From: Candidatus Krumholzibacteriota bacterium
Lineage (GTDB): Bacteria; Krumholzibacteriota; Krumholzibacteriia; LZORAL124-64-63
DNA: 64,000 bases
NCBI GenBank assembly: GCA_039714075.1
Contig: JBDLKA010000004.1
Coordinates: 3,087 to 67,086, forward strand
Reading direction: 5' to 3'
A model generated the notes under the pieces. It did no database searches. It worked only from the letters and a program-made list of their open reading frames with translations, and had not been told where the DNA came from. Both the position numbers and the translations under genes were made by a program. Positions 1-43,192 of this stretch are shown in pieces. Numbering within the stretch: position 1 is the first letter of the stretch; the number at the start of each line of letters is the position of its first letter.

Positions 1-1518
1 AAAACCGGCCATGCGGGGCGAGCGGATGCCGTAGGCACTGAGTACGGCAAAGGCATCCTCCTGCGTCAGGTAATTGTCCTTGCCACGATACTTCTCGATG
101 ATGACTTCGGCTGCCGCGCGATCGGTTTCCATATCGGACAGATCCTCGCGCACCCGTTCGCGCAGGCGGGCGTAGCGGTTCATGGCCGCCAGGGCCCGCG
201 CCCCGTCCTCGGCGAACTCGAACACCGGCAGATCGGCCGCCCGCAACTGGCCGATCAGGCGGTAGTTCTCGCTGTAGGTCTCCACCACCACGACCACGGG
301 CTTGTCCGACTCCTCGGTCGCCTCCTTGATGCGCCGGGCGATGGCGTCGATGTCCGTGAACGGCGCGGTCACGAAAAACACCATCACCATGTCCGTGTTT
401 TTCTCGGCCAGCAGGGTGCTGATCGCCGCGTGGTAATGATCCTGGTTCGCGGTGGCCACCACGTCGACCGGGTTGCCCAGACTAGCCTCGGCGAACTGTG
501 TTTCCTCCAACCGCTTCTTGCCTTCGTCCGACCACTTCGCCAGTTCCAGCCCCTGCCCAATGGATTCATCCACGGCCTGAATGCCCGGCCCACCCGTATT
601 GGTGATGATGCCGATGCGGTTGCCCGGCGGCGGATTCTGGGTGGACATGGCGATGGCGGCCTTGATCATTTCGTGCGTGTCGGTGAAGGGCACCACGCCC
701 GCCTTGCGGTACATGGCTTCGGCCATCTTCACCTGGTCGACCAGCGCCCCGGTGTGCGACGACACCGCTTTCGATCCTTCGGACGTTCGCCCGGCCTTGA
801 TGGCCAGAACGGGTTTGTGGGGCGTGATCTTTGCTGCCACTTCCAGGAACGCGCGCGGGTCCTTGAAGCTTTCGGTCTGCATCATGATCACGCGGGTGCC
901 TTCGTCCTGGCTGTAGTATTCCAGGATCTCGGGCATGGTCAGGTCGCACTCGTTGCCGTAGGAGCAGTACATGCGGTGCCCCAGGCCGACGTTGTGCAGG
1001 TGCAGTTTGAGCATCTCGCCCATGCCGCCGCCCTGGGCGATGATGGAAACATTACCCGGCTTCTGCGGCACGAAAGTGAAGTTGGCATACACCGATACTT
1101 CCGGGTCGGCGTTCTGGATGCCCTGGCTGTTCGGTCCGAAAATGCGGATGCCGTGCTTGTGCGCGGTCTCGACCATTTTCCGTTCGAGCTCGACTCCCTC
1201 GGGACCCACTTCCTTGAACCCCGCCGAGTGCACGATGGCGAACTTCACGCCCTTGGCCCCGCACTCTTCCAGCACCGCGGGCACGTACACGTTCTTGATG
1301 GAGATGTTCACCAGGTCGATGGTGTCGCAGGGCACGTCCAGGATCGACTTGTAGGCCTGGATGCTGCGAATGGTCCCCCCCTTGGGGTTGATGGGGAAAA
1401 CCGGTCCCACAAATCCGTAATTGGTCAGGTTCTTCACCACGATGTGACCGATGGAGTAGGGGTTTCCCGAAGCGCCGATCACACCCACGGCGCGGGGTCT
1501 GAACAATCCGTCGAGCAT
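1..1518 (-). CDS. Acyl-CoA synthetase (NDP/ADP-forming), acetate--CoA ligase family. Partial: N-terminal 506 aa; the C-terminus lies beyond the window start.
   Basis: Manual minus-strand translation from the ATG at 1518 gives MLDGLFRPRAVGVIGASGNPYSIGHIVVKNL... (CoA-binding domain), followed by succinyl-CoA-synthetase-like and ATP-grasp parts (..EVIIEKYRGKDNYLTQEDAFAVLSAYGIR..). No stop down to position 1. It is absent from the ORF track only because it runs off the edge. Confidence 0.8.
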   Translation of the reverse strand, partial: MLDGLFRPRAVGVIGASGNPYSIGHIVVKNLTNYGFVGPVFPINPKGGTIRSIQAYKSILDVPCDTIDLVNISIKNVYVPAVLEECGAKGVKFAIVHSAGFKEVGPEGVELERKMVETAHKHGIRIFGPNSQGIQNADPEVSVYANFTFVPQKPGNVSIIAQGGGMGEMLKLHLHNVGLGHRMYCSYGNECDLTMPEILEYYSQDEGTRVIMMQTESFKDPRAFLEVAAKITPHKPVLAIKAGRTSEGSKAVSSHTGALVDQVKMAEAMYRKAGVVPFTDTHEMIKAAIAMSTQNPPPGNRIGIITNTGGPGIQAVDESIGQGLELAKWSDEGKKRLEETQFAEASLGNPVDVVATANQDHYHAAISTLLAEKNTDMVMVFFVTAPFTDIDAIARRIKEATEESDKPVVVVVETYSENYRLIGQLRAADLPVFEFAEDGARALAAMNRYARLRERVREDLSDMETDRAAAEVIIEKYRGKDNYLTQEDAFAVLSAYGIRSPRMAGF

Positions 1519-1534
1519 GCCTGGTTCCTCTCTT

Positions 1535-2320
1535 TTACTTAGCGGTCGCCAATTTGCGGGCGGTCAGGGCGGCGCCCAACGCGCCTGTGAACTGGGGAGC
1601 TTCGGGCACGACCACATCGCGGCCCAGGCGCGAAGCCAAAATCTTCACGATGACCGGATTGTGCGCCACCACACCCCCGGTGGCCATGACCATCCCGTCC
1701 AGGGGATCCATTTCGACGATGCGGTCCACCACCGAAACGAAGGCCCCGCGCACGATGCCCTCCACGGGCGCACCCTGCCTCAGGTGGGACAGGATCTCGG
1801 TCTTGGCGAAAACCGTGCAGAAGCTGCCCAGGCGCACCGGTTCGTCGGTGCTCCCGGCCAGGGCGTCGAGCTCGGCCACATCCAGGTTCAAACGCAGGGC
1901 GATCTCCTCGATGAACGCGCCCGTACCGGCGGCGCACTTGCGGTTCATCTTGAACTCGCGGCGTTTCCCCTCGTCGTCCAGGTGGATGACCTTGTTGTCC
2001 TGGCCCCCGATGTCGACCACGGAAACCGCCTGCTGCGCGTGATGGAAGCAGCCGACACCGTGACAGTGGATCTCGGTGCGGGACTCGCCGGCAAAATCGA
2101 CATTCCTGCGTCCGTAGCCCGTGGAAACGGTCACCGCCGGCTCACCCGTCAGGCCAGCGGTTTTCAGGGCCTCGTCAAGACACTGGCGCGCGGTGCCGCG
2201 GTAATCGACACCGGAATGGCGCATGGCCCTGGCCAGCACCTGCCGGTCGCCATCCAGCAGGACCAGCTTGGTCGCCGACGCGCCGATATCCACGCCGCAA
2301 TAGAAGTTTCCCGTGGTCAT
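1535..2320 (-). CDS. BadF/BadG/BcrA/BcrD/HgdC-type ATPase (2-hydroxyacyl-CoA dehydratase activator-like, 261 aa)
   Basis: N-terminal GVDIGASATKLVLLD actin-like ATPase motif, ~260 aa, and conserved Cys (CAAGTGAF). Same strand as, and 8 nt from, the dehydratase-like subunit gene. Confidence 0.85.
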   Translation of the reverse strand: MTTGNFYCGVDIGASATKLVLLDGDRQVLARAMRHSGVDYRGTARQCLDEALKTAGLTGEPAVTVSTGYGRRNVDFAGESRTEIHCHGVGCFHHAQQAVSVVDIGGQDNKVIHLDDEGKRREFKMNRKCAAGTGAFIEEIALRLNLDVAELDALAGSTDEPVRLGSFCTVFAKTEILSHLRQGAPVEGIVRGAFVSVVDRIVEMDPLDGMVMATGGVVAHNPVIVKILASRLGRDVVVPEAPQFTGALGAALTARKLATAK

Positions 2321-2327
2321 GCTCCTA

Positions 2328-3572
2328 TCACCGGCCCTCTTCGATCTGCTCGACCAGGGCCTCGAACTGCGTGCGGGCCTGCTCTTCGGAGTACATCCGC
2401 AGATCGTTCAGGTCGCCGTTGATCGTCACGTAGGGCACGCCCGTCGCGCCGGTCATGCGTTGCGGCATTCCGTAGCGGCAATTCGAGTTGTTGGGGCAGG
2501 TCTTGGCGTCGTGGTAGATGATGCCGTCGATTCCGTAGGTCGCGAACATTTTCTTGAGGTAGTCCTCTTTGTAGTTCTCGCCGCGCACGATGAACAGTTC
2601 GGTGTAGCTGCGCGCCATGGCTTCGAAGGGATCGTCCAGGCCCATGGGCTCGAAGATCCAGCTGTTGCAGTAGGTCGACGCCACCACGCAGGCGTGCTGG
2701 CCGGCAAACTGTTCGGCGTGGTCGCGCAGCTTGCCCCAGACGGGCATGCCCTCCCAGTAGAAGCGCAGCTTTTCGTCCTCGACGGCGGCCACGCCGTCGG
2801 CGATGCGCTGCTCCAGTTCGGCGATCAGCACCGGGTAATATTCCTCGGCCGCGGCCGTGCCGCGCAGAACCACCGCCGGCCCCATGTGGATGGTGCAATC
2901 GAAGAACGAAATGGGGCTGGGCTGGTGGGCAGCCAGTTCCAGGACCCGTTTCCACAACAGGGTGCAGCGGTAGGACGAGGCCATCACTTCCTTCAAACGA
3001 TCCATATCGAATTTGCGGCCGGAAATCTCTTCAAGGGTCGGAATCAGGGCCTTGTGCTGATCGATCAACCCGTCCAGGTGGTCCTTGGTAATTTCCTCCA
3101 GCCCCCGCGGGGTATCGATACCGATCAAGGGCACATCCCACTCGCGCTGGTAGAACGCCAGCCAGTCCTGCACATCGCGGCACTGGTTGGTGTTGTAGAC
3201 CAGTACGTCCGCCTTGGGCACGCCCTTGATGCCGAAGGCCTTCATCAGGGGCGTCTGCTGCTTCAGGTACGAGCCCACGTCGCTGGTCAGGTACGAGCAG
3301 ATATCCGGCGAATACCCCCGGGCGTTGGCCGCGGGAATCAGGTCCGCCGCCACGCGCGACGAGCCCAGCACCGCACCGTGATTCTCGGGAAAATAGACCA
3401 GGAAACCGAAGGACCGCAGCAGTTCGGCCGGTCCCACGCTGGTGCACCAGGCGATCAGCGGGCGGTCCGAAGCGGTGGAGTTGGCGGCGGCGTCCAACTC
3501 GATGAAATGCTCGGCCATGAGTTTGCGCATCATGCCGGTGGCCTGGATTTTCTTGATGGGGGTGTCGCTCAC
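2328..3572 (-). CDS. 2-hydroxyacyl-CoA dehydratase / benzoyl-CoA reductase B/C-family subunit (HgdA/BcrB-like, YjiM-like); a lone subunit, 414 aa
   Basis: Clear paralogy to the BcrB-like protein at 14116..15426 (LMAEHF..LRSFGFLVYFPEN..YSPDICSY.. versus [27 protein letters not shown]..). It sits upstream of the activase gene on the same strand. Confidence 0.8.
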   Translation of the reverse strand: MSDTPIKKIQATGMMRKLMAEHFIELDAAANSTASDRPLIAWCTSVGPAELLRSFGFLVYFPENHGAVLGSSRVAADLIPAANARGYSPDICSYLTSDVGSYLKQQTPLMKAFGIKGVPKADVLVYNTNQCRDVQDWLAFYQREWDVPLIGIDTPRGLEEITKDHLDGLIDQHKALIPTLEEISGRKFDMDRLKEVMASSYRCTLLWKRVLELAAHQPSPISFFDCTIHMGPAVVLRGTAAAEEYYPVLIAELEQRIADGVAAVEDEKLRFYWEGMPVWGKLRDHAEQFAGQHACVVASTYCNSWIFEPMGLDDPFEAMARSYTELFIVRGENYKEDYLKKMFATYGIDGIIYHDAKTCPNNSNCRYGMPQRMTGATGVPYVTINGDLNDLRMYSEEQARTQFEALVEQIEEGR

Positions 3573-3714
3573 GGGGCAGTATCTCCTTGGGTGGGTCGGG
3601 AAAGAGGCATTCCGCGGATACTAGCATTGCGGGATATCCAGCGTCAATCGGCGGGCAATCACCCCATGAATCACAGTTGAATCACAAGGACCGAAACCGG
3701 TAGACTCCCGGCCC

Positions 3715-4125
3715 ATGACCACGATCTCGAGCAAAATCCCCCGCGAAACCCTGCGCGGTTACCTCTTCATCGTCTTGGCCGCCTTCTGCTGGGGCGGCAT
3801 CGGCCCGGTGTCCCGTTACGCGTTCGCCCAGGGCCTGGCGCCGTTCGTCCGGATCGAATTTCCCGCGCCACGGGCCCTGCTGGCGGTGATCTTTCTCGCG
3901 GTGATCTCCACCTTCGCCGCCTACTCCCTGAACTACGCGGGACTCAAGCGGCTGGAATCCTCACGCGCGGCGACCGTGGCCACCATAGAACCGGTCATCG
4001 CCGGAGCGGCGGCCTGGGTCTGGTGGGGGGAGACCTTCACTTTCTGGGGTTACCTGGGCAGCGGGCTGATTCTGCTGGGTGTGCTGCTGCTGATTACGTC
4101 TTCCTCAAAGGAAGGCGCAAGTTAG
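3715..4125 (+). CDS. EamA/DMT-family small membrane protein (136 aa), possibly a truncated remnant
   Basis: The N-terminus resembles EamA TM1 (LFIVLAAFCWGGIGPVSRYAF) and the C-terminus matches the end of an EamA domain (ATVATIEPVIAGAAAWVWWGETFTFWGYLGSGLILLGVLLL). The middle is too short for a canonical 10-TM DMT protein. Confidence 0.45.
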   Translation: MTTISSKIPRETLRGYLFIVLAAFCWGGIGPVSRYAFAQGLAPFVRIEFPAPRALLAVIFLAVISTFAAYSLNYAGLKRLESSRAATVATIEPVIAGAAAWVWWGETFTFWGYLGSGLILLGVLLLITSSSKEGAS

Positions 4126-4155
4126 CCACGCCTTAAGCTGAAACGGCGAGACGGA

Positions 4156-6405
4156 TTATTTGATCAAAACAAGTTTACGGGTCACGGCCCCGTCCACGGA
4201 CTGCAGCCGCGCGAAATACACCCCCGCCGAAACCAGCTGTCCGGTGTTGTCTTTTCCGTTCCAATGGACAACGTAGGAACCGGCCTCTCGATACTCCTCG
4301 ACCAGCGTGCGCACCTTGCGTCCGGCAGCGTCGTGAATCGAAAGGACGACCGGACCCGCTCGTTCCAGTCCGAATTGCATTTCGGTACGCGGGTTGAAGG
4401 GGTTCGGAAACGGGTTGTCCAACCACACCGCGGTCACCTTGTTGCCGGGCAGCAGATTGCCGTCCACCGGGGCGGGGTCCGAGCACTCCCGTCCCAGGAT
4501 CGTCAAGGTGCCGCCGAGCAAATACACATACCCGTGATCAACTTCGGCCTGCCATGCATAGGCACCGGAATGATAATCACCGAGCAGGACAGGCGCCGAT
4601 GGTGAATTCACGTCCACCACGATCATGCCGCTTTGGTATGCCGAAACGTAGGCGGTCTTGCCGTAGACCTCCACGTCCCGGCATCTCCCGAGAGGCAGCT
4701 GACCCACCAGAACAGGAAGATCCCACGAGGCAAGATCATAGATGGAAAGGCCTGTGTTTCCAACAAGATACAGATATCCGCCTGACGCCGTTCCATGGTA
4801 GATATCTTCCGGATGAGATACCGTTGAGACATGGACCGGGGCCAGCGGGGACGCCAGATCAAAAACCGAAATTTCGCCGCCAAAGGGATCGCCGCTTAAG
4901 GCGTAGAGGTGCCCGTCGAGGACGTCCAAAGCCGACAAGGAAAAGCCAAGGTGGTCTCCCACGGCAACCGGGGTATCCGGAATCGACAGATCGTAGACAC
5001 GGAAACCACTCGATTGGATTGCGTACAGGATATCGTCGACAACCAGGCCGTCCACGCGCATCTCGACATCGGTCGCCACGGGATCACCGGTCGGCCAGTG
5101 AAACGAGCCGAAAGTCGAGTGCAGGTATTCGCCATGAATGGCGAATCCAACTTCAAACATGGGTGTGCCGACATTTATAAAAAAACCATGTGAAAAAACA
5201 GGATTTTCGGGGTCACTCAGGTCGAAGACTTCGATAGCCCCGACATCGTACCATTCATCGGAAAGGTCCTCCAAAAAGAAGGCATTCGTGTCCGTAATCT
5301 TAAAGTCCACGGAGGGAATGGCACCCAGGATGTTCGCAGCCGGAGGAGGAACCGTCAGAAGACCTTCGTGATTAACGAGTCTCAGATTATCGAAATAGAG
5401 TAAGCGTTCTCCGACCACTTCCACATGGGCGTTGTCTGCGACTCCGATTCCGTAAACCCTTGTCCAGATTCCGTCAACTTCGGTCAGGTAGTTTACCGAA
5501 CCTTCGGATGGCGCATAGATCATCCCGTTCCCGATGGCAGGTTGGCCGACAATGGGCCGCCCGAAGCTGAAATCCCCCACCTCTTCAATGGCTGCCGGGT
5601 TGGAAAAATCCAGGATCTTCAGGACACTGCTAGAAAGAATGGATCCAAACTGAGAGGGAGGATACTGGTCCAAACGGGCCGCCACCGTCCCGCCTTCGGC
5701 GTCCAGGGCGTCGAACATTTGTCCGTTTGTGGGAGTGGCATAGGTTGTAAATTCACCAAGAAGTACGGGAACGGCCGGTGCCGAAAGATCGTAGGCCCGC
5801 AAAAAGCCCTCGGTTCCAAAGCGACCTCCAACGTACCAGACGCCCGCATCCTCGGCCACACTCAGGGCCCAGTCGACATCGGACAGGGAAACTTCCTCGA
5901 CAGGCGCCGTCGGATCGGAAATGTCGAAAAACCGGAAGCCGTCATCCAGGGCGGCAATGCAGGCAAGACCGCCGACCATCTCCTGATCGACGACTTCGGA
6001 GGCCGAGGCATTCTGCGATCGCTGAACCGGATGGTGCGGATTCGAAAAATCCACCAGCAGCCAGCCACAATTCACGGGATTCGAGGTCTTGAAACCGACG
6101 CTGACCAGGGAGCCCTCGCAGGCGAGGGATGTCGGCCATCCCGCCGAGGAATTGAAATCTCCCAGCACTTCCGGCGCGGCGGCAGGCAAGGCACGCCCCC
6201 AGACCAGGCGCAGACCCGTCCCTGAACCATCTCCGGTGGCGTAGCAGAAATAGTCACCGTCGACCGCCAGTATTTTGAACATGATGGTATCATCGGGAAT
6301 GCTGCCGATTTCGGCCGGCAATTGACCGTAGGGTGTACAATCCGGGGCACCTACAGCCACGGAAGAACAAATGGTCAGCAGGACTATCATGATTAGAGTT
6401 TTCAT
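4156..6405 (-). CDS. Secreted LVIVD-repeat beta-propeller protein with a T9SS type-A C-terminal sorting domain
   Basis: The ORF runs 4156..6450. The signal peptide MKTLIMIVLLTICSSVAVGA begins at M16 (6405). LVIVD-like repeats are present (AYVSAYQSGMIVVDVNSPSAPVLLG). C-terminus NPFNPRTEMQFGL..GVYFARLQSVDGAVTRKLVLIK. Confidence 0.75.
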   Translation of the reverse strand: MKTLIMIVLLTICSSVAVGAPDCTPYGQLPAEIGSIPDDTIMFKILAVDGDYFCYATGDGSGTGLRLVWGRALPAAAPEVLGDFNSSAGWPTSLACEGSLVSVGFKTSNPVNCGWLLVDFSNPHHPVQRSQNASASEVVDQEMVGGLACIAALDDGFRFFDISDPTAPVEEVSLSDVDWALSVAEDAGVWYVGGRFGTEGFLRAYDLSAPAVPVLLGEFTTYATPTNGQMFDALDAEGGTVAARLDQYPPSQFGSILSSSVLKILDFSNPAAIEEVGDFSFGRPIVGQPAIGNGMIYAPSEGSVNYLTEVDGIWTRVYGIGVADNAHVEVVGERLLYFDNLRLVNHEGLLTVPPPAANILGAIPSVDFKITDTNAFFLEDLSDEWYDVGAIEVFDLSDPENPVFSHGFFINVGTPMFEVGFAIHGEYLHSTFGSFHWPTGDPVATDVEMRVDGLVVDDILYAIQSSGFRVYDLSIPDTPVAVGDHLGFSLSALDVLDGHLYALSGDPFGGEISVFDLASPLAPVHVSTVSHPEDIYHGTASGGYLYLVGNTGLSIYDLASWDLPVLVGQLPLGRCRDVEVYGKTAYVSAYQSGMIVVDVNSPSAPVLLGDYHSGAYAWQAEVDHGYVYLLGGTLTILGRECSDPAPVDGNLLPGNKVTAVWLDNPFPNPFNPRTEMQFGLERAGPVVLSIHDAAGRKVRTLVEEYREAGSYVVHWNGKDNTGQLVSAGVYFARLQSVDGAVTRKLVLIK

Positions 6406-6680
6406 GGTGGGATATTCCCTTTCTTGGATATAATTTCTCCTATATAACACCTGGATTATCTTATCATTAATGAAAGATTGATGTCAAATGGATGCCATAG
6501 TTCATCAATTCCTCAAAAAGCTCCACCTGTTGCCGTCCCCAGGCAATTTTCCTGGCCGAAACACAGGTCACAATTCCAATGCCACAACCAATTCCTTGAA
6601 ATCCCCTCCCCGAAATGGGAGAATGATTTTTCGAAATCAGACTCGCCCATTCTGCCCCATATCATCCAAGGAGAACCCTC

Positions 6681-8648
6681 ATGATCGTCGGCGTCATCGG
6701 TTCCGGCTCCATCGGCCCGGACCTGGCCTATGGTTTTGTCTCCGCCCTGGCCAGCCACCCGGACAGCCGTGTCCTCCTTCACGACATCAAACCCGACGCC
6801 TTGGAGGCCGGCCTGGCCCGCATCCAGGGCTACGTGAAAAAGGGTGTCGATCGTGGCAAGCTCAGTCCCAAGGTGGCCGCGGCCATCGGTGACAAACTGG
6901 TCACGACGCTGGACCTTCCCGACCTGGCCGATTGCGATTACGTGCTCGAGGCCGCCACCGAGGATCTGGGGATCAAGAAGATCATCCTGGGCAACCTGGA
7001 AAAAGTCGTGCGGCCCGACTGCCTGATCGGCTTCGCCACCAGCGGCCTGCCGCGCGCGGTGATCGCCGCGGACACGAAACACCCCGAGCGCTGCTTCGTG
7101 AACCACCCCTTCTTTCCCGCCTGGCGCGCCATGCCCATCGAAGTCGTGCTGTCGGACCACGCCGAGTACAGCGAGCGCATGCTGACGACCTTGAAGCATC
7201 TTGGCAAAGTGCCGGTGATCACCGCCGACGTGCCGTGCTTCGCCGCCGACGACATCTTCTGCAACTACTGCGCCGAGGCCGCGCGCATCCACGTCGAAGG
7301 CGTGGCGTCGGTGTGGCAGGTGGACAAGATCGTCAACGACGCCATCGGCGGCGGTGGTCCCTTCAACGTCATGGACCTGACCCGCGGCAACCTGCTGAAC
7401 GTCAAATGCCTGAAGCTGATGGAAGAAGCCGAGACGGGCAGCGAATGGTTCGCCCCGCCCGAGGTCTTCTCCACCCAGGCCAACAATCCCTGGCTCGACC
7501 ACAAGAACCCCGGTGACCCGTCGTACAGCCCCGAACTGGGCCAGCAGGTGCTGGACCGCATCCTGGCCGTGCTATTGGGACGAACCTATTTCGTGGCCGA
7601 CAACGATATCTGCGACCCGGCGGACCTGAACTGGCTGACGAGCAACGCCCTCGGTTTCAGCAAGGGGCTGCTGGATCTGGCGGCCGAACTGGGCGCCGAC
7701 CGCGTGCACGAGATCTGCACCACCTACGCGGCCGCCAACCCCGGTTTCGAGGTGCCCAAAAGCATTAGCGACCGGGTGCTGCTGGATTTCAAGCGCAACC
7801 TGCAGATCGAGAAGGATGACACCATCGCCACGGTGACCATCAAGCGTCCCGAGGTGTTGAACGCGCTGAACGACCAGACCATGAACGAGTTGAACGCCAC
7901 CTTTGACGAACTGGAAGCCGACAACACGGTGGCCGGCATCGTGGTCACCAGTTACGGCGGCTCGCTGGCGGGCGCCGACATCAACGAACTGGCCGCCCTG
8001 CCCACGCCCGAAGAGGCGGCCGACAAGTGCCGCCGCGGGCACAAGATTCTGCGCCGGATCGAGAACTGCGCCAAGCCGGTGGTCATCGCCGTGAACGGTC
8101 CGGTGCTGGGCGGCGGCGCTGAACTGTCCATGGCCTGCCACGCGCGGGTCGTGGGCCCGGGCCTGATGCTTGGTCAGCCCGAAGTGAACCTGGGGATCAT
8201 CCCGGGTTACGGCGGCACCCAGCGGCTGCCCCGCCTGATCGGGGTGGAAAAAGCCGCGGAAATGGTGCGGACCGCCAATACCATCGGCGCCAAGGACGCC
8301 TGCGCCCTGGGTTGGGCGGTCGGTGAGCCCGCGACCTCTCCAGTCGCGGCGGCCAAGGATGTGATCAAGGCCCACCTGGACGGGTCGGCGCCCATCAAGC
8401 GTCTGGACACCGGACCCATGAAAGTGCCTGCAACATTGCCGGCCGTCGACATCGGCCACCGTTCCCTGGCCATCGACCGCATCCTGACCGATACCCTGTT
8501 CGCCGGACTGAAAACCGACCTGGACAGCGGTCTGGAGCTCGAAGCCGTGGCCTTCGCCCGCTGCAAGGGGACCGTCGATTACGACATCGGCATGACCAAT
8601 TTCATCCAGAACGGACCCCGGGTGCCCGCGGTCTTCATGAACGAATAA
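6681..8648 (+). CDS. Fused 3-hydroxyacyl-CoA dehydrogenase (N-terminal) / enoyl-CoA hydratase (C-terminal) bifunctional protein, 655 aa
   Basis: An N-terminal Rossmann motif VIGSGSIGPDLA (3HCDH family) and a C-terminal crotonase fold (VIAVNGPVLGGGAELSMACHARV). The domain order is the reverse of FadB/FadJ and matches the archaeal Hbd-Crt fusion type. Confidence 0.9.
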   Translation: MIVGVIGSGSIGPDLAYGFVSALASHPDSRVLLHDIKPDALEAGLARIQGYVKKGVDRGKLSPKVAAAIGDKLVTTLDLPDLADCDYVLEAATEDLGIKKIILGNLEKVVRPDCLIGFATSGLPRAVIAADTKHPERCFVNHPFFPAWRAMPIEVVLSDHAEYSERMLTTLKHLGKVPVITADVPCFAADDIFCNYCAEAARIHVEGVASVWQVDKIVNDAIGGGGPFNVMDLTRGNLLNVKCLKLMEEAETGSEWFAPPEVFSTQANNPWLDHKNPGDPSYSPELGQQVLDRILAVLLGRTYFVADNDICDPADLNWLTSNALGFSKGLLDLAAELGADRVHEICTTYAAANPGFEVPKSISDRVLLDFKRNLQIEKDDTIATVTIKRPEVLNALNDQTMNELNATFDELEADNTVAGIVVTSYGGSLAGADINELAALPTPEEAADKCRRGHKILRRIENCAKPVVIAVNGPVLGGGAELSMACHARVVGPGLMLGQPEVNLGIIPGYGGTQRLPRLIGVEKAAEMVRTANTIGAKDACALGWAVGEPATSPVAAAKDVIKAHLDGSAPIKRLDTGPMKVPATLPAVDIGHRSLAIDRILTDTLFAGLKTDLDSGLELEAVAFARCKGTVDYDIGMTNFIQNGPRVPAVFMNE

Positions 8649-8661
8649 ACGGGAGACGAGC

Positions 8662-9945
8662 ATGACCACGAACAGCAAATCCATCGTCATCCTGGACGGC
8701 GCGCGCCGGACGCCGAGGGCCGACATCCTGATCAACAACCGCGAACCCGGTCTGTTCTCGCGCTTTGCGACCACCGCCCTGGGCGGCATGGCCATCAGGG
8801 CCACCCTGAAAAATACGCCGCTGGACAAGGGATTGATCGGCCACGTCATCATGGGGATGGCCTCGCACAGCCATCGCGACAGCATCTACGCGGCCCAGGG
8901 CATGGCCTGGCGCGGCGGCCTGGCCGACGACGTGCCCGCCCTGACGGTGGCCCGCATCTGCGGCAGCGGCGCCGAAGCGGTGGCCGTGGGCATGGAGCAT
9001 ATCCTGGCCGGTATCCGGCACGACCGTGACCGGCCGTTCCTGGTTGTCGGCGGCGGCGAGAGCATGCAGTACCCCTTCAGCGTTTACGGCATGCGCGGCC
9101 AGAAAGTGGGTACGGCGATCCAGAAGTACGGACCGCTGGACCCGCGTGGTCTGCCCCGGGGGTCCATGCTTCAGGATTCCCTGTTGCTGGGCCTTTATGA
9201 TCCGGGCGCCAGCCTGGCCATGGCCAATACCGCCGAAGAACTGGGGCGGCGTTACGAAATCACCCGCGAAGAGGCCGACGCCTTCGGCCATCGCTCGCAC
9301 ATGAATGCCAAGGCTGCCCGTGACGAAGGATTGTTCGCCGAGGAGATCGAGCCGGTCACCCTGCCCGGCAGCGGCGGCGAGGCCGACGTCGTGGTCGAAC
9401 ACGACACCCATATCATGGACAACATCAGCCTGGCCAAGATGAGCCGCTTGTACCCGGCCTTCGAGGCGGGCGGCATCATCACCGCAGGCAACGCCAGCGC
9501 CGTGGTCGACGGCGCGGCGGCCATGGTGCTGGGCCTCGAGGACGATGCCAAGGCACACGGCCTGAAACCTTTGGCCCGGGTGGTCGCTGTCGGCACGGCG
9601 GCCTGCGATCCGCGGATCATGGGCTGGGGTCCGGTTCCAGCGACGCGCATCGCCCTGGAAAAGGCCGGCCTGGCCGGAAGCGACATCGACCACGTCGAAT
9701 TGAACGAAGCCTTCGCGCCCCAGGCCCTGGCCTGCATACGGGACTTTGCCGACATGGGCATCGATCCGGAGAAGGTCAACCCGCAGGGCAACGCCATCGC
9801 GCTGGGCCATCCCCTGGGCGCGACCGGAGCCATCCTGACCCTGACCTGCGCCTACGCCCTGCGGCGCAAGGGCCAACGCTACGGTCTGGTCACGATGTGC
9901 ATCGGCGGGGGGCAGGGAAATTCGCTGGTCATCGAGTCCTTGTAG
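8662..9945 (+). CDS. Acetyl-CoA C-acyltransferase (thiolase)
   Basis: Thiolase signatures: VARICGSGAEAV (active Cys), NEAFAPQALAC, GHPLGATG, and CIGGGQG near the C-terminus. Lies 13 nt downstream of the dehydrogenase/hydratase gene. Confidence 0.92.
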   Translation: MTTNSKSIVILDGARRTPRADILINNREPGLFSRFATTALGGMAIRATLKNTPLDKGLIGHVIMGMASHSHRDSIYAAQGMAWRGGLADDVPALTVARICGSGAEAVAVGMEHILAGIRHDRDRPFLVVGGGESMQYPFSVYGMRGQKVGTAIQKYGPLDPRGLPRGSMLQDSLLLGLYDPGASLAMANTAEELGRRYEITREEADAFGHRSHMNAKAARDEGLFAEEIEPVTLPGSGGEADVVVEHDTHIMDNISLAKMSRLYPAFEAGGIITAGNASAVVDGAAAMVLGLEDDAKAHGLKPLARVVAVGTAACDPRIMGWGPVPATRIALEKAGLAGSDIDHVELNEAFAPQALACIRDFADMGIDPEKVNPQGNAIALGHPLGATGAILTLTCAYALRRKGQRYGLVTMCIGGGQGNSLVIESL

Positions 9946-9978
9946 TCAGTAAACATCAACCTGTGAAAGTCGGTCGCC

Positions 9979-10395
9979 ATGTCCTTGTCCTACCATTGCC
10001 CCAATTGCGACAGCCTGCTGAATCCCAACGTGCGCGTGGTGCTCATCGCCCGCTACGGTGAAAAACAGGGCATCGTCCTTATGAGTTCGAAGCCCGGGGA
10101 CTACCAGGTCATCTGCGACAAGGGCTTGTGTCACGACGTGGCCAAAGGGGATGTCGTCGATTTCAGCTGCCCGGTCTGCCACGGGTCGCTGACCTCGGAG
10201 TCCCATGACCACTTTGCCGAACTCAAGGTCGTGAACTCGCAAAAGGAAGGGCACGAACCCTGCCTGCTGCGCTTCAGCCGGGTCAGCGAAGAGCATGCGA
10301 CGTTCCTGTACGACGGGGACTCGGTGAAGGAGTTCGGGGAAGAGGCGGGACTTTTCAGTAAAGAGATGACGATCGAAGGGGACTGGGGCTGGTAG
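9979..10395 (+). CDS. Small Cys-rich hypothetical protein (two CxxC pairs, Zn-ribbon-like), 138 aa
   Basis: CPNC at residues 7-10 and CPVCH at 64-68. Same strand as, and 33 nt downstream of, the thiolase gene. No recognisable family. Confidence 0.5.
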   Translation: MSLSYHCPNCDSLLNPNVRVVLIARYGEKQGIVLMSSKPGDYQVICDKGLCHDVAKGDVVDFSCPVCHGSLTSESHDHFAELKVVNSQKEGHEPCLLRFSRVSEEHATFLYDGDSVKEFGEEAGLFSKEMTIEGDWGW

Positions 10396-12732
<2,337 letters not shown>

Positions 12733-12836
12733 GGTTTGCCTCTCTGGTGTTGCCCGACACCGTCCCACGATAGTCCGGGAGAGAAACAAAAACAACCGTC
12801 AGCTGCGGCCCTTTGTCCGGCTTTGTCCACATTCTC

Positions 12837-12925: not shown

Positions 12926-14119
12926 ATGACAAAGGATTCTCCCGTGACCCCTTCCCCCCGCACCCAGATCGTCGACTGGGCCACCGAAATCTACGAAGAC
13001 CTGGATTTCACCGCGTCCCGGCAGTGGCTGGACGACCACCCGGGCAGCAAGGCCGCCGGGTTCCTGCCCGTCTACGCCCCCAAGGAGATCATCCATGCCG
13101 CGGGCATGCTGCCGGTGGGCATCCACGGCAACGGGGCCATCGAGATCATCCGCGGCGACGCCTACTACCAGAGCTATATCTGCCATCTGCCCCGGTCGGT
13201 GGTCGAATTCGCGGAATCCGGCCGCCTGGATTTCCTGTCGGCGGCCTTGTTTCCCTCGACCTGCGACGTGATCCGCAACCTGTCCGGCATGTGGCAGGTC
13301 ATGTTCCCGGAGATGTACGTGCGCTACCTCGACCTGCCCCAGGTGGCGGATCCGGAACTCGGCGCCAGGTTCTGGCAGCGGGAACTGAACGTGATCCGGG
13401 AGGAACTGGGCCGCGTGGCCGATGTGAACATCACCGATGACCGGCTGCGGGCGTCGGTCGCGGTGTACAACGAGGTGCGCGAGGTCATCGGCCAGTTATA
13501 TGGCCTGCGCAACAAGCAACCCTGGAAGGTGCCCACCGAAGAATTATACCTGCTGCTGCGGGCAGGGGAAGTCGTGGCGCCGGAAGTCTTCATGGAGAAG
13601 GCCCGCGCCTACCTGCAGGCCGCCGAAAACAGCGACGATCCCCTCAAGGACCGCACCCGGGTGATCATCGTGGGCTCGTTCTGCGAACAGCCGCCCCTCG
13701 GGCTGATCAAGACCATCGAACGCGCCGGCTGCTACATCGTCGACGACGATTTCCTGGCCGGTAACCGCTTCCTTACCAACGCCGTGCCCGTCGCAGGTGA
13801 TCCCGCGGAAAACCTGGCCACTACGTTCACCAGCAGCGCCGTCAAGACCTCGGTCCTGTACGAACCGGATCCCGACGGCAAGAAGAACCTGATGCAGCAG
13901 CGCGCCAAGGCCGCCGGCGCCGACGGCATCATTTTCTGCGCCGCCAGTTTCTGCGATCCCGCCCTGCTGGACAGGCCCATGCTGCGCGACGGGGCCGAAC
14001 AGGCCGGCATCCCCTGCATCGCCTTCAAGTTCGCCGAGAACTCGGGGCAGTTCCAGCAGTTCCGCGAGCAGGCGGGCACCTTCAGCGATTCGATCAAACT
14101 GTGGGGAGAGGCGTCATGA
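12926..14119 (+). CDS. Benzoyl-CoA reductase / 2-hydroxyacyl-CoA dehydratase family subunit, BcrC/BadD/HgdB-like (397 aa)
   Basis: First gene of a 4-gene cluster with sizes 397/437/426/290 aa, matching BcrC/B/A/D. C-terminal Cys-containing motifs. The stop overlaps the next start (ATGA). An alternative GTG start lies 18 nt downstream, after AAGGA. Confidence 0.8.
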   Translation: MTKDSPVTPSPRTQIVDWATEIYEDLDFTASRQWLDDHPGSKAAGFLPVYAPKEIIHAAGMLPVGIHGNGAIEIIRGDAYYQSYICHLPRSVVEFAESGRLDFLSAALFPSTCDVIRNLSGMWQVMFPEMYVRYLDLPQVADPELGARFWQRELNVIREELGRVADVNITDDRLRASVAVYNEVREVIGQLYGLRNKQPWKVPTEELYLLLRAGEVVAPEVFMEKARAYLQAAENSDDPLKDRTRVIIVGSFCEQPPLGLIKTIERAGCYIVDDDFLAGNRFLTNAVPVAGDPAENLATTFTSSAVKTSVLYEPDPDGKKNLMQQRAKAAGADGIIFCAASFCDPALLDRPMLRDGAEQAGIPCIAFKFAENSGQFQQFREQAGTFSDSIKLWGEAS

Positions 14120-15426
14120 GCGACCAGAAAACAGACATCCGCCAGGCCCAGAAGGACGATTCGATGATCATCCAGAAAGAGATGATCGCCGAGCACTACA
14201 AGCGGCTCGAGCGGGCGCCCGAAACCAAGGAACCGGTGGTCTACACCTTCGTGCCCGGCAACCTGACCGAGCTCATCCGCTCGTTCGGCTGCCTGCCCGT
14301 GCTGCCGGAGATCAACGCCCTGCAGTCGGGCATGCGGGGAAAAAGCCGCGAATATATCGCCGAAGCCGAAAAGCGCGGGCACTCCGAGGACGTCTGCACC
14401 TACGTCAAGTGCGACATCGGCATGGCCATGGCGGGCAACATCGGCCCCACCGGCACCAAGCTGCCCAAGCCCGACCTGCTGCTGCTCTCGTACACCGGCT
14501 GCTACACCTTCATGAAATGGTTCGAACTGCTGCGCGAGGAATACGATTGCCCCTGTGTTTTCCTGCACGTGCCCTACCAGGGCGAAGGCAACATCGAACC
14601 CGAGCACCGGGACTACATGATCAAGCAGATCAAGGAAGAGGTCATTCCCGCGCTGGAGAAAATATCCGGCCGCAAGTACGACGAGGATGCCCTGAAGGAG
14701 CGACTGCGGTTGAGCGTGCAGGCCGAGGACGATCTGGTCTGGGTGCTGCAGTCCGCCATGAAAAAACCCTCGCCCATCGACGCCTACTTCGGCGCCGTGT
14801 ATTACGTGGGTCCGATCTTCAGCGCCTTCCGCGGCACCGAAGAAGGCGTCAATTATTACCAGGCGCTGCGCCGCGAAGTGCAGGGACGCCTGGATGCCGG
14901 GCTGGGTCCGGTCGCTCCCAAGGGTCCCATGGCCGAGGAGAAATACCGCCTGGTGGTCGAAGGCCCGCCCAACTGGACGCACTTCCGCGAGTTCTGGCAG
15001 ATGTTCGCCGACGAGGGCGCGGTGGTGGTGGCCTCGACCTACAGCAAGGTCGGCGGCACCTACGATTTCGGTTTCCGGCACAACCCGGATGACCCCCTGG
15101 GCACCATGGGCGACTACTGCGCCGGCTGCTACACCAACCACAACCTGCCCGGCCGCATCGACATGCTGTGCCAGTACCTGAAGGATTACGAGGCTGACGG
15201 GTTTTTGATCAACTCCGTCAAGTCGTGCAACTCGTTCAGCGCCGGCCAGTTGATGATCCTGCGCGAGGTCGAGAAACGCACCGGCCTGCCGGGCGGTTTC
15301 ATCGAATCGGACCTTGTTGATCCGCGCTACTTCTCGGCCGCCAACATCAAGAATCGCCTGGAGAGTTACCTGCAGATGGTCGAAGCCCGCCGCGCCGGCG
15401 CTTCGCAGAAAGGCCTGTCCGCATGA
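14116..15426 (+). CDS. Benzoyl-CoA reductase / 2-hydroxyacyl-CoA dehydratase family subunit, BcrB/BadE/HgdA-like (437 aa)
   Basis: The ORF runs 14101..15426. An ATG at 14116 overlaps the upstream stop. Paralogous to 2328..3572. Conserved Cys-rich stretches ([33 protein letters not shown]). 4-nt overlap with the next gene. Confidence 0.8.
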
Positions 15427-16703
15427 GCATCGCCTGTGTTGTCGGGACGGACCTCGGTTCGACCACCACCAAGTCGGTCATCCTCGATGGTGACGGAAAC
15501 ATTCTCGGGCGCGGCATCACCAACAGCCGCTCCGATTACGATCGCGCGGCCAAGGTCTCGCGCAGCGAAGCCTTCATCACCGCGCGCTTCAACCTGCTCC
15601 AGCGCGAGGTTGAACAGGCCGCCGGACCCGAGGTGCTTCAGCGTCTACTGGACGCCTTCCGGCTCGAGCAGACCCTCGCCCAGCTCGACCGGTTGCACCA
15701 ACTTGTGTCCGGCGCCCTGGCCTTCGGCGTGCCCGGTGACCTGAGCGTCGCGGCCACCGAAGCCGTGAAAACCATCGTCACCCGTATCCAGCAAAGCGAA
15801 CTGAAACGTTTCGAGGATCCTAATCCGCCCAAGCGCTCGGACTTCTTCCGCGACACCGTGGGTTCGGCCTGGAGCACCATCAGCGAAGAGATCGGCGATC
15901 CGGCGGGCGTTAGCTTCGACATGCTGCTCGGCCTGTACGACAAGTGCATCATCCAGGTCGAGAACGAACCGCTGGCCCTGGGCTTCGGCGATCATATCGA
16001 AAACGCCCTGGAGCGCATCGGCGGTTCCGAAGCCGTCAAGACCGGGGTGCGCCACGCCGTCGAGGCCGAATTCGACGTGCGCGGGGAAGTGGGCACCGGT
16101 TACGGCCGGCAGCGCCTGCCCTTCCCCAAGGAGATGATCCGTTCGGAAATCCTCTGCCACGGCCTGGGCGCTTCGATCATGTTCGGCGGCACCCGCACCG
16201 TGCTGGACATCGGCGGCCAGGACACCAAGGCCATTCAGGTCGACGAGAACGGCATCGTGACCAGCTTCCAGATGAACGACCGGTGCGCCGCCGGTTGCGG
16301 ACGGTACCTGGGCTACATCGCCGACGAGATGAACCTCGGGCTGCACGAACTGGGACCTTTGGCCCAGGAAAGCACCCGCACGGTGAAGATCAACTCCACC
16401 TGCACCGTTTTCGCCGGGGCCGAACTGCGCGAGCGCCTGTCCCTGGGCGAAAAACGCGAGGACATCCTGGCCGGCCTGCACCGCGCGATCATGCTGCGGG
16501 CCATGAGCCTGCTGGCCCGCTCGGGCGGCGTCGAGGACGAGTTCACCTTCACCGGCGGCGTGGCCAACAATCCGGCCGCGGTGTCGGCTCTGCGCGAACT
16601 GGTGACCGAAAACTACGGGGACAAGGTTCTGAACATTTCCCCGGACAGCATCTACACCGGCGCCCTGGGCGGCGCCATTTTCGCCCACAGGAGCGCGAAC
16701 TGA
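15423..16703 (+). CDS. BcrA/BadF-like ATPase subunit (long BadF/BadG/BcrA/BcrD-family ATPase with an insertion, 426 aa)
   Basis: N-terminal [17 protein letters not shown] and a second half carrying CAAGCGRYL and TGGVANN. Its length, insertion and position match the alpha subunit of class-I benzoyl-CoA reductases. Confidence 0.85.
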
Positions 16704-17575
16704 TGAGTACCGAAAACACTACCAAAACAGCAACGGTCACCGCCGGCCTGGACGTCGGCTCGGGTGCGGTCAAGGCCGTGGTCATGGGGTTCGAAGACGG
16801 CCGCGAAGAACTGCTGTCCAAGGTCAGCACCCGGATCCGCCGCCGGGACATCAATGATGTCGTTGACGAGGTCTTCGGCCAGGCGGTCGCCGAAGCCGGC
16901 GTCGATGGTCTGAACTACGTGGCCACCACCGGTGAAGGCGAGGACATTCCCTTCGCCACGGGCCACTTCTACGGCATGACCACCCATGCGCGCGGCGCGC
17001 TTTTTCTCGATCCGCGCGCCAACGCCGTGCTGGACGCCGGCGCCCTGCACGCCCGGGCCATGGCCATGGACAACCGGGGCAAGGTCCTGAACTACAAGAT
17101 GACCAGTCAGTGCGCGTCCGGCTCCGGACAGTTCCTGGAGAACATCGCCCGCTATCTGGGGGTCTCCCAGGCCGAGATCGGCGACCTTTCCCTGGCCGCG
17201 GACAACCCGGAAAAGTGCAGCGGCATCTGCGCCGTGCTGGCCGAGACCGACGTGATCAACATGGTCTCGCGCGGCATCAGCACCGAGAATATCCTGCGCG
17301 GAATTCATGAAAGCATGTCCGGGCGCTTCGTGCGCCTGCTGCGCTCGCTGGACTACGGCGAAGTGATTTTCGTCAGTGGCGGCCTGGCCGGTGATGTGGG
17401 TCTGGTCAAGTCGTTGGCTGACGAATTCGCCGGGCTGAAAAGCCTGAAGGGGCCCGTGCCCGAGATCGCCACCCACCCGGACAGTATTTTCGCCGGGGCG
17501 ATCGGGGCGGCCATCTGGGGGAATTTCCGGCATGGCAAGCTGGGGCTGGAAGGGTTTGCCTGGCAGGCGGCCTGA
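16703..17575 (+). CDS. BcrD/BadG-like ATPase subunit (short BadF/BadG/BcrA/BcrD-family ATPase, 290 aa)
   Basis: The ATG at 16703 overlaps the upstream stop (TGATGA). The track lists it only within the over-extended ORF 15944..17575. GLDVGSGAVKAVV and CASGSGQFLE motifs. Confidence 0.8.
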   Translation: MSTENTTKTATVTAGLDVGSGAVKAVVMGFEDGREELLSKVSTRIRRRDINDVVDEVFGQAVAEAGVDGLNYVATTGEGEDIPFATGHFYGMTTHARGALFLDPRANAVLDAGALHARAMAMDNRGKVLNYKMTSQCASGSGQFLENIARYLGVSQAEIGDLSLAADNPEKCSGICAVLAETDVINMVSRGISTENILRGIHESMSGRFVRLLRSLDYGEVIFVSGGLAGDVGLVKSLADEFAGLKSLKGPVPEIATHPDSIFAGAIGAAIWGNFRHGKLGLEGFAWQAA

Positions 17576-23093: not shown

Positions 23094-23272
23094 CCCAGAG
23101 CATGATATTCCGCTCGAAAGTGGTATTTCGAGCTCGATTCATATCATATCATACTAATATGTATTTGTTAAGAAAGGGGCGCTATGCACTCCGACTGGCC
23201 GATTTGAGACATTTTTGATATTAATTGGTGGGTTCCAGGCGTTACCGCTCATTCCTGAATTCTGGAGACCCT

Positions 23273-27925: not shown

Positions 27926-28254
27926 GCGATTTCCTCCCCGCCGACGGACCTGCCGGCAAGTTCGTTTTCCTTACCGGTACACTTGTGGTTGTAGATGAGG
28001 GCCATCACCAGAGCCAGGACGATCAGCCCCATCCCGTAGACAACGGCGAGGTTCAAACCCATGAAGACGATGACCTGCATGACTTTGCCCTCGGCCACAA
28101 CGTTGGCCAGGACAAAACCCACGTACACGACGCAGTAGATGAGGAACATCACTACGCCCAGGCGAGTCTTGTAATTGCTCGCCGGATCAGGTCCGGATTC
28201 GGGGGCGGGTCCCTGGTGCATGACTTCCTCCTGGGGAAGGGGGCCGGGGCTCAA
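27922..28254 (-). CDS. yjcH: DUF485 family inner membrane protein (YjcH-like), 110 aa
   Basis: Two TM helices, ~110 aa, with a 4-nt overlap onto the ActP start. This is the characteristic partner gene of actP. Confidence 0.8.
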   Translation of the reverse strand: MSPGPLPQEEVMHQGPAPESGPDPASNYKTRLGVVMFLIYCVVYVGFVLANVVAEGKVMQVIVFMGLNLAVVYGMGLIVLALVMALIYNHKCTGKENELAGRSVGGEEIA

Positions 28255-28464
28255 GGACCGCTACGTGCGGCCCATCAAGGGTGATGGCGACGAAATTAAT
28301 ACCCCGTTAAATGAATAACAAATAAAATGAAAGTTAAATTTCTGTTGGGTGTATTTTCTGGTTCCATAGGCAAATACGGAAATTGCTGGTGGGCAAACCG
28401 CCGGTTGGAAGGCTCCCCTGCATCGGTTATTATTACCAAGCATTTCTCCCGAACCGGAGTTCTC

Positions 28465-41885: not shown

Positions 41886-42058
41886 TGTCGGGACCTCCCT
41901 CCAGGACCTGTTTTTCTGTTCACGCTCCTTTTGCTATTCTCACCAAGATCCGAGCGGCTCAGGCCAATTGCGTCCGGGGCTCCAGTGGATCTTGGACCTT
42001 GTTCTGAATTTTGAATTTCACTTTACTTTAACACATGTGGTGGACCCGATGTAATAAA

Positions 42059-42180
42059 ATGGTTGTGCCAAAGCAATTGTGTCCGTCGCTGGATTGCAGG
42101 TCATGGTGATGGAAATAAGCAGCCACCGTAACAAAGTGACAAAAGGAGGTGCCCCGGGGCACCTCCTTTTGATGTTTGGA
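42059..42180 (+). ncRNA. Candidate small RNA / conserved structured intergenic element, copy 1 (~122 nt, ends in a terminator hairpin AGGAGGTGCCCCGGGGCACCTCCT plus T-tract)
   Basis: ~75-80% identical to 58323..58447, including an exact 24-nt block GGATTGCAGGTCATGGTGATGGAA and the terminal GC hairpin plus TTTTGATGT. Not explained by any CDS. The overlapping ORF 42079..42651 is antisense to a real gene and not conserved as coding. Confidence 0.3.
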
Positions 42181-42224
42181 TTTTCTTCGCGGCCCGACCT
42201 ACCGGCAGGCCGATCCCAACGGCC

Positions 42225-42968: not shown

Positions 42969-43132
42969 GAGAATGCTCCTAACCCTGCGGTCGGTTTGTA
43001 TGAGCTCCCCCGTACATATGGTAGCCGCGGTTGCCCATTCCTTGAAGAACGAAGTTGTTGATCAACCGGACTGATTCTGCCTGGTTATTTCCCTCGTTCT
43101 GCCAGGGCAGGTATGCAATCGTTATGCCCAAC

Positions 43133-43164: not shown

Positions 43165-43192
43165 CCTTGGTCGTCAGGAAAAAATCCCCACC

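Follow-up and report, generated by a model that had tools for sequence, protein, structure and literature searches.

An inverted dehydrogenase–crotonase fusion and its thiolase as a probable beta-oxidation cassette in a benzoyl-CoA supercluster of Candidatus Krumholzibacteriota

We analyzed three consecutive genes in a 64,000-nucleotide (nt) stretch of a Candidatus Krumholzibacteriota bacterium (GenBank assembly GCA_039714075.1, contig JBDLKA010000004.1), referred to here as the window. They encode a 655-amino acid (aa) dehydrogenase–crotonase fusion protein (6681..8648, + strand), a 427-aa thiolase (acetyl-CoA C-acyltransferase, where CoA is coenzyme A; 8662..9945, +), and a 138-aa protein with two CPxC knuckles (9979..10395, +). 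In the reading that we prefer, to which we assign a probability of about 0.6, the fusion and the thiolase form a self-sufficient and widespread beta-oxidation cassette that was recruited into a benzoyl-CoA supercluster, where it drains the CoA esters of its neighbors; the 138-aa protein is an add-on of one lineage. The three co-oriented open reading frames (ORFs) had been proposed in an earlier description made from the letters of the window (the original prediction), and all of their coordinates and lengths were reproduced. The fusion and thiolase genes are 13 nt apart and the thiolase and 138-aa genes 33 nt apart, a Shine–Dalgarno-like AAGGAG (6668..6673, +) lies 7 nt 5′ of the fusion start codon, and a similar GGGAG precedes the thiolase gene. 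The three genes would thus form one operon, presumably transcribed as such.

The fusion protein carries its dehydrogenase at the N terminus and its crotonase at the C terminus, an arrangement proposed originally and matched by the Pfam domain coordinates: 3HCDH_N at residues 3–183 (E = 2e-31), 3HCDH at 187–276 (E = 4e-10), and ECH_1 at 378–544 (E = 1e-38). The dehydrogenase half (residues 3–276; 6687..7508, +) contains a GSGSIG NAD-binding loop at residues 7–12 as well as D35, S121, H142, and E154. S117, H138, and E150 of Clostridium acetobutylicum Hbd [Protein Data Bank (PDB) ID code 6aa8] map onto the last three in an alignment that reproduces the published numbering. The crotonase half (7812..8645, +) consists of the ECH core (378–544) with E481 and E501 and a divergent C-terminal part (545–655). 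Its two glutamates align with the two hydratase glutamates of P. fragi FadB, E120 and E140 in the numbering of PDB chain 1wdk_A, which we take to be the published catalytic Glu119 and Glu139 with an offset of one residue. The middle region (277–377; 7509..7811, +) matches no Pfam model and is conserved in the family, with a mean majority-residue frequency per column of 0.79 among 11 distinct sequences (the window protein and clade orthologues). The GSGSIG loop, S121, H142, E154, E481, and E501 are invariant in all 78 full-length fusion-family members from metagenomes that served for family-wide residue checks. Both the crotonase Glu pair and the dehydrogenase His/Glu pair, on whose loss the original prediction had said its bifunctional assignment would fail, are therefore present throughout.

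Solved two-domain relatives (P. fragi and E. coli FadB/FadJ, plant MFP2, and mitochondrial TFE-alpha) have the hydratase first and the dehydrogenase second, aligning to fusion residues ∼375–570 and 3–235, respectively. The domain order of the fusion is therefore reversed with respect to FadB, in agreement with what had been predicted. The FadB/FadJ–FadA/FadI complexes and the mitochondrial trifunctional enzyme share with the cassette the same three chemistries and adjacent genes, and both halves of the fusion are homologous to FadB/FadJ; however, their domain order is the opposite one, and we found no evidence of a long-chain role for the fusion. An identity as a classical FadB/FadJ alpha subunit was ruled out by this reversal together with NCBIfam scores far under the cutoffs (FadJ, 228 vs. 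869; FadB, 221 vs. 870). We likewise ruled out a Dch or Oah identity for the crotonase half. Its best match is the generic short-chain enoyl-CoA hydratase model NF004475 (200 bits vs. a cutoff of 394), and neither a Dch nor an Oah model occurs among its best 25 NCBIfam matches.

The order had also been called archaeal in style, and this part of the prediction holds only halfway. It is indeed the order of Msed_0399, an active bifunctional hydratase/dehydrogenase with an N-terminal dehydrogenase and a C-terminal hydratase, of a type widespread in Archaea (PMC7078158). However, the order is not specific to Archaea. FadB′ (H16_A0461) of Ralstonia eutropha H16 represents an inverted, “Burkholderia-like” FadB type that has been characterized in bacteria; like the fusion, it has an N-terminal NAD-binding 3-hydroxyacyl-CoA dehydrogenase and, at its C terminus, an enoyl-CoA hydratase, it sits in a beta-oxidation operon, and both of its activities were shown on C4 substrates (PMC4230905). 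FadB′ is likened to the fusion by architecture and not by sequence identity: it is an 86-kDa protein, compared with ∼71 kDa calculated for the 655 aa of the fusion, from which it is further set apart by the Asp190/Asp191 pair that replaces Asn-Arg in the fusion family. NCBIfam also includes a Staphylococcus model named 3-hydroxyacyl-CoA dehydrogenase/crotonase FadB. The 655-aa family itself has more than 1,000 bacterial homologues, the best 120 of which bear a standard NCBI family name and are all at least 65% identical and almost all exactly 655 aa long.

By comparison, haloarchaeal proteins of the same order are only 26–29% identical to the fusion. They resemble it in length (650–665 aa), in the crotonase Glu pair, and in the dehydrogenase Ser/His/Glu residues, but they do not have the ∼26-residue insertion that the fusion has near 584–609, and in neither of the two haloarchaeal loci examined is there a thiolase gene behind the fusion gene, unlike in the window. 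The archaeal comparison is drawn from these haloarchaeal sequences, Msed_0399 being likened through its published description. The domain architecture is thus common to archaea and bacteria, and nothing in these comparisons suggests an archaeal origin.

The thiolase is catalytically complete. It matches Pfam Thiolase_N (E = 1e-47) and Thiolase_C (E = 3e-43), scores 347.9 against a TIGR01930 cutoff of 240.55 and thus belongs to that family, and aligns over its full length with solved thiolases. No variation in C100, N348, H383, or C413 occurs among 13 sequences, namely that of the window protein and those of 12 distinct orthologues. Its linkage to the fusion was followed in a sample of 80 metagenome loci retrieved via the fusion protein at 60–89% identity, with genes in GC-rich loci called by a per-locus codon-usage model; picking the longest ORF was rejected, as it chose antisense ORFs in such loci. 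The thiolase gene directly follows the fusion gene in 59 of 59 loci, regardless of divergence (7/7 at ≥70% identity, 16/16 at 64.5–70%, and 36/36 below 64.5%). The 30 loci without a recognized partner have mixed surroundings: among the 98 proteins encoded by the two closest genes on either side, any one Pfam family is seen in at most 3. The fusion and the thiolase are, therefore, an obligate pair with otherwise variable neighbors, and on the strength of these counts and of the heterogeneous surroundings, we regard the pair as a generic two-gene cassette recruited by particular lineages.

In the window, the recruiting context is a supercluster for benzoate degradation. Upstream and divergent, it comprises genes for an ADP-forming acyl-CoA synthetase (ACD; 1..1518, −; 506 aa inside the window, whose start truncates it, and 692 aa in orthologues; Pfam CoA_binding_2 and Succ_CoA_lig), an acyl-CoA dehydratase activase (1535..2320, −; 261 aa; Pfam BcrAD_BadFG; TIGR00241, 210 vs. 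a cutoff of 125), and a single-subunit, HadB-like protein of the Pfam HGD-D family (2328..3572, −; 414 aa). The ACD scores 415 bits, under the cutoff, with the NCBIfam model for the acetate–CoA ligase alpha subunit. Downstream lie bcrC, bcrB, bcrA, and bcrD (12926..17575, +), which encode a Thauera-type class I benzoyl-CoA reductase (BCR): BcrC (484 vs. 421), BcrB (678 vs. 487), and BcrD (354 vs. 313) score above their NCBIfam cutoffs and BcrA just below (552 vs. 578). The order ACD(−) activase(−) HGD-D(−) <> fusion(+) thiolase(+) 138-aa(+) recurs in at least 12 loci, often with bcrCBAD(+) directly downstream of the 138-aa gene. In orthologous clusters, a Zn-dependent alcohol dehydrogenase reaches equivalog level as Had (442 vs. 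339), and in locus L003, the ligase after the small gene belongs to the benzoate-CoA ligase family (613 vs. 375). These matches bear out the originally proposed bcr-like cluster and its link to aromatic-acid catabolism. The presence of bcrABCD in Krumholzibacteriota has already been published, in a paper whose main text makes no mention of thiolase, hydratase, 3-hydroxyacyl, or beta-oxidation (PMC10936416).

Such neighbors are, nevertheless, a matter of lineage. The HGD-D gene stands divergent from the fusion gene in 14 of 52 loci, a share that falls with distance from the window (5/5 at ≥70% identity, 7/16 at 64.5–70%, and 2/31 below 64.5%), and bcr or had was found in 10 of the 80 loci. Their combinations vary as well: L041 has bcrCBAD right after the thiolase gene, had adjoins the cassette in L053 and L065 without HGD-D, and L028 keeps SSF, ACD, activase, and HGD-D but has neither the small gene nor bcr. 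In L029 (12277–14669), L089, and L092, iorA and iorB for indolepyruvate:ferredoxin oxidoreductase follow the thiolase gene, which suggests that in those lineages the cassette is linked to aromatic amino acid fermentation.

The closest references of both fusion halves and of the thiolase are C4 enzymes, namely C. acetobutylicum Hbd, short-chain crotonase, and the acetoacetyl-CoA, BktB, and T1 thiolases. This points to a short-chain role, turning crotonyl-CoA into two acetyl-CoA that would feed the ADP-forming synthetase. In the mechanism that we propose, the C-terminal crotonase half would hydrate a short 2-enoyl-CoA, most likely crotonyl-CoA; the NAD-dependent N-terminal half would oxidize the (S)-3-hydroxyacyl-CoA to the 3-oxoacyl-CoA; and the thiolase would cleave the latter into acetyl-CoA and an acyl-CoA two carbons shorter. 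The cassette would thereby drain the CoA esters of the HadB-like HGD-D/activase pair and of the bcrCBAD neighbors into acetyl-CoA, from which the adjacent ADP-forming synthetase may generate acetate and ATP. Directly observed are the gene structure, the domain order, the catalytic residues, the synteny counts, purifying selection, and the lack of known relatives of the small protein; the substrates, the direction of flux, transcription as an operon, the metal of the small protein, and any role of that protein are inferred.

Several points weigh against this reading. All NCBIfam matches of both fusion halves fall below the equivalog cutoffs, and no substrate can therefore be assigned by homology. 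The window holds no gene for glutaryl-CoA dehydrogenase, electron-transfer flavoprotein (ETF), Dch, or Oah. The dehydrogenase is without the canonical catalytic Asn, having Asp190 and Asp191 instead, and operon status draws on spacing and conserved order. The original prediction had offered as an example the lower glutaryl/crotonyl-CoA branch of aromatic-acid degradation. Its biochemistry largely holds, but the specific branch is only one of two equally open readings.

The first of these is a specialist of the lower benzoyl-CoA pathway, in which 3-hydroxypimelyl-CoA from Had/Oah would be oxidized and thiolysed to glutaryl-CoA and acetyl-CoA and, after glutaryl-CoA dehydrogenation and decarboxylation, crotonyl-CoA would yield two further acetyl-CoA. 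The C4-type resemblance of both fusion halves would suit such a specialist, as would the position of bcrCBAD downstream of the cassette operon and that of had beside the cassette, in L053 and L065 and also in Krumholzibacteriota clusters. However, gcdH, dch, and oah are missing from the window and from the related 20-kb loci examined, the HGD-D/activase pair, which is the most conserved partner, has no role in the lower pathway, and ∼70 of the 80 fusion-family loci lack bcr and had nearby. We consider this specialization possible but clearly less probable than a generic, recruited cassette.

Slightly less probable still, in our estimate, is an upper feeder route. The SSF transporter would import a 2-hydroxy acid such as phenyllactate, the ADP-forming ligase would activate it, HGD-D and its activase would dehydrate the 2-hydroxyacyl-CoA to the enoyl-CoA (cinnamoyl-CoA), and the cassette, by hydration, oxidation, and cleavage, would release acetyl-CoA and supply benzoyl-CoA to bcrCBAD for reduction. 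This gives every gene of SSF-ACD-activase-HGD-D <> fusion-thiolase a role, with gene order equal to reaction order. The HGD-D protein is nearest to the HadB dehydratase alpha subunit rather than to BCR subunits, relatives of the ACD include ADP-forming hydroxy-acid-CoA ligases, and the iorAB genes after the thiolase gene in L029, L089, and L092 fit as well. There are also precedents: in D. multivorans, side-chain beta-oxidation to benzoyl-CoA is clustered with dearomatization genes (PMC5109826), and strain BzS1 has been proposed to use a phenyllactyl-CoA route (PMC13416013). Against the feeder route stand the single HGD-D subunit where alpha/beta heterodimers are canonical, the lack of a CoA-transferase gene, fusion halves that look C4-type and not aryl-specific, and the scarcity of the HGD-D partner among the more distant loci.

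The best PDB match of the HGD-D protein, over the full length, is the alpha subunit of 2-hydroxyisocaproyl-CoA dehydratase (E = 1.6e-49), although its NCBIfam HadB score (225) is far from the cutoff of 750. The full-length HadB alignment and the dedicated activase gene next to it recall HadBC with its activator HadI, except that the window encodes one HGD-D subunit instead of two. Being alpha/beta heterodimers, 2-hydroxyacyl-CoA dehydratases of the canonical kind require a pair of unlike HGD-D subunits, so the enzyme here may be homodimeric. Together with its own activase (1535–3572, −; also in L001, L028, L033–L039, and others), it is the most conserved neighbor of the cassette. A second, more divergent HGD-D (39–42% identical) and activase lie directly 5′ of had in the Krumholzibacteriota clusters of L034 (1–2700), L036 (1–2655), and L038 (1–2590); these genomes thus carry two orphan pairs besides bcrCBAD.

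Beyond the preferred cassette of fusion and thiolase, the third gene of the locus is real: the 138-aa protein has 83 close homologues (55–91% identity), nearly all exactly 138 aa long, and dN/dS ratios (nonsynonymous to synonymous substitution rates) of 0.11–0.19 against closer orthologues indicate purifying selection. CPNC occupies residues 7–10 (codons 9997–10008) and CPVC residues 64–67 (codons 10168–10179), and C7, C10, C64, and C67 are the sole invariant cysteines of the family. Further invariant positions are FSR (99–101), ATF (107–109), and W136 and W138 in a C-terminal W-x-W tail. The two halves of the protein are homologous (hhalign probability 88%, E = 3.4e-6), which indicates a duplicated unit sharing a single Cys4 site. 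We conclude that it is probably a noncatalytic, internally duplicated beta protein stapled by a Cys4-bound metal, presumably zinc. The original view that it has no known role holds: searches returned no Pfam family above threshold, no PDB relative, and no fold match.

Relatives of the protein occur beyond the cassette, and the gene is dispensable for it. An exhaustive profile search returned 298 cluster representatives (50% identity clusters), 156 of them at E ≤ 1e-10; these relatives, of ∼130 aa, retain the knuckles and the FSR..GE.ATF..FG.D motifs, and no stretch of 7–10 columns is conserved across the wider family. One match was discarded, that of P0084, a 3,047-aa, Cys-free cadherin-repeat protein that matched the profile 17 times, an artefact of summed repeat scores. 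In a collection of species genomes, relatives come from metagenome-assembled genomes (MAGs) of Candidatus Krumholzibacteriota/Krumholzibacteriia and from unclassified MAGs; the family as a whole spans Krumholzibacteriota, Bacteroidales, and other lineages. At the end of Mbh/Mrp [NiFe]-hydrogenase operons, directly after the gene for the maturation protease HycI, stand the genes of three independent members of Bacteroidales type; those in L021 (1–8408), L023 (1–8414), and L030 (1–8417), 22–28% identical, end an operon for a group-4 membrane-bound [NiFe]-hydrogenase/Mrp. One distant member is standalone, and one intermediate member lies beside an Rnf cluster. In the fusion sample, the small gene follows the thiolase gene in 8 of 54 loci (7/7 at ≥70% identity, 1/16 at 64.5–70%, and 0/31 below 64.5%), leaving 46 of these loci with a cassette but no small gene, as also seen in L028, L029, and L041. 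It is a lineage-specific addition.

Known small metal-binding proteins do not account for it. A rubredoxin identity was rejected because the best Rubredoxin match (E = 0.016, 15.7 bits vs. a cutoff of 23) arises in distant members only. Rubredoxins are proteins of ∼50 aa whose knuckles are spaced by ∼30 residues and whose second Cys is followed by Gly; in the 138-aa protein, the knuckles are 54 residues apart and no Gly follows. In HypA, nickel is bound at an N-terminal MHE and two CxxC motifs lie close together, but the N terminus of the small-protein family reads MxxxYxCPxC, and seven proteins scanned gave no HypA match at E ≤ 10. Trm112 was excluded too, with nothing beyond sub-threshold zinc-knuckle noise (Pfam, E ≤ 10) and no fold match. 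The DUF35 zinc-ribbon/OB-fold scaffold is alike in being a small Cys4 zinc-ribbon-type protein beside a thiolase; however, DUF35 has a compact N-terminal ribbon plus an OB fold, whereas the knuckles here sit on two duplicated beta units, and neither a Pfam DUF35 match at E ≤ 10 nor a fold match was obtained.

By analogy with the DUF35 scaffold of archaeal thiolase/HMG-CoA (3-hydroxy-3-methylglutaryl-CoA) synthase, the 138-aa protein might be a structural subunit that bridges thiolase and fusion in a channeling complex. Within its clade, the small gene always lies 15–60 nt 3′ of the thiolase gene and accompanies the cassette even in loci without adjacent bcr (L003, L004, L019, and L051), and the invariant W-x-W tail suggests a docking peptide. 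Even so, we judge a bridging subunit unlikely, with the lack of sequence or fold similarity to DUF35, the 74%-identical thiolases of L028 and L029 that do without the protein, and distant members in hydrogenase operons or alone with no thiolase near. Dependence of the thiolase on the small protein is itself ruled out by L028, L029, and L041. We are equally doubtful of the other proposal, an accessory factor (in assembly, metal handling, or regulation) for low-potential, ferredoxin-linked iron–sulfur enzymes, that is, bcrCBAD and/or HGD-D/activase here and the Mbh-type hydrogenase in Bacteroidales. The terminal position of the three Bacteroidales-type genes in Mbh/Mrp operons, the Rnf neighbor of the intermediate member, and the many loci of its clade in which the small gene is immediately 5′ of bcrC speak for this factor. 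Yet L041 has bcrCBAD directly after the thiolase gene and no small gene, the small gene of L051 and L019 comes without bcr, no match to HypA or rubredoxin exceeds the threshold, and the genomic contexts share only a loose theme.

The fusion departs from its references in its substrate-binding motif. The codons for D190 and D191 (7248..7253, +) occupy the column of Asn-Arg (Hbd N188, human HAD N208), where the gap-free counterpart of CFAADDIF is PGF(V/I)VNR in each of the five PDB references displayed and also in two haloarchaeal enzymes of the same order. The conserved substrate-binding Asn is thus absent from the fusion, with Asp190 in its column. D190/D191 is invariant in 78 of 78 family members, whereas Asn-Arg is found in all references displayed; the exchange is therefore a fixed family trait and not an error. 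The two haloarchaeal enzymes keep both PGFVVNR and HFFNP where the fusion family has CFAADD and NHPFFPAW. The original prediction holds for the His/Glu pair of the dehydrogenase but overlooked this replacement of the catalytic Asn, owing to which specificity or efficiency may differ from textbook Hbd.

That the exchange marks another substrate class or chemistry, making the label “crotonyl-CoA to acetoacetyl-CoA” wrong for the family, is improbable: the invariance of D190/D191, the retention of Asn-Arg in the PDB and haloarchaeal references, and the concurrent change of HFFNP would agree with it, but neither the Ser-His-Glu residues nor the NAD-binding loop is altered, the fusion is always paired with a canonical thiolase, whose substrate must be a 3-oxoacyl-CoA, and Asp can fill the same hydrogen-bonding position as Asn. 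We give as little credence to the broader proposal that the 138-aa protein founds a new family of dedicated accessories of low-potential iron–sulfur systems (BCR/HGD-D here, Mbh-type in Bacteroidales) while the fusion represents an Asn→Asp subfamily of inverted FadB with an undescribed substrate range.

The window differs from related loci in some details of layout. Region 3715–6450, which separates the HGD-D gene from the cassette, encodes a 136-aa piece of an EamA transporter that matches only the second half of the domain, together with a 764-aa protein of LVIVD repeats that bears a secretion tail. Most related loci have only ∼200 nt at this place, so the two genes look like an insertion. 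The interval from the small gene to bcrC is occupied by a gene for a hybrid PAS histidine kinase/response regulator (10396–12795, −) whose stop codon touches that of the small gene without a spacer; at this position, related loci have no such gene. On the + strand, ORFs of 370, 301, and 455 aa (430–3680) have no Pfam matches and overlap real minus-strand genes; given the high GC content, they are antisense artefacts.

The original prediction had further linked actP to the route, and this did not stand. The gene lies 16 kb from the cassette, on the far side of three kinase genes, and none of the related clusters examined has it; the conserved partner is the divergent HGD-D/activase/ADP-forming ligase/SSF operon, whose transporter is a different, PutP/PanF-like SSF. 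The region 26054–30528 encodes the ActP/MctC-like symporter (446 vs. a cutoff of 670) beside a Cache-PAS-DUF294 nucleotidyltransferase-type sensor, neither of which is in the conserved cluster. The three consecutive Ser/Thr protein kinase genes (18072–25972; 896, 776, and 915 aa) are large and fused to PD40 beta-propeller or TPR regions. Two further regions (38886–51376 and 55630–63990) hold a dense run of large secreted proteins (LVIVD, FG-GAP, Laminin_G_3, PKD, and M43 peptidase) with FlgD_ig/Por_Secre_tail C termini, a pattern typical of cargo for type IX secretion in the Fibrobacteres–Chlorobi–Bacteroidetes (FCB) group.

The enzyme pair itself is ordinary biochemistry, a mobile two-gene cassette and no pathway-specific invention. 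Three features remain novel: Asp190 as a signature, the orphan family of small proteins, and the neighboring single-subunit HadB-like enzyme, which may be the more interesting target for biochemistry. The analysis also corrects the notion that a dehydrogenase-first domain order signals archaeal ancestry. Finally, it shows which beta-oxidation genes travel with benzoyl-CoA reductase in an uncultured phylum implicated in the anaerobic breakdown of aromatic carbon.

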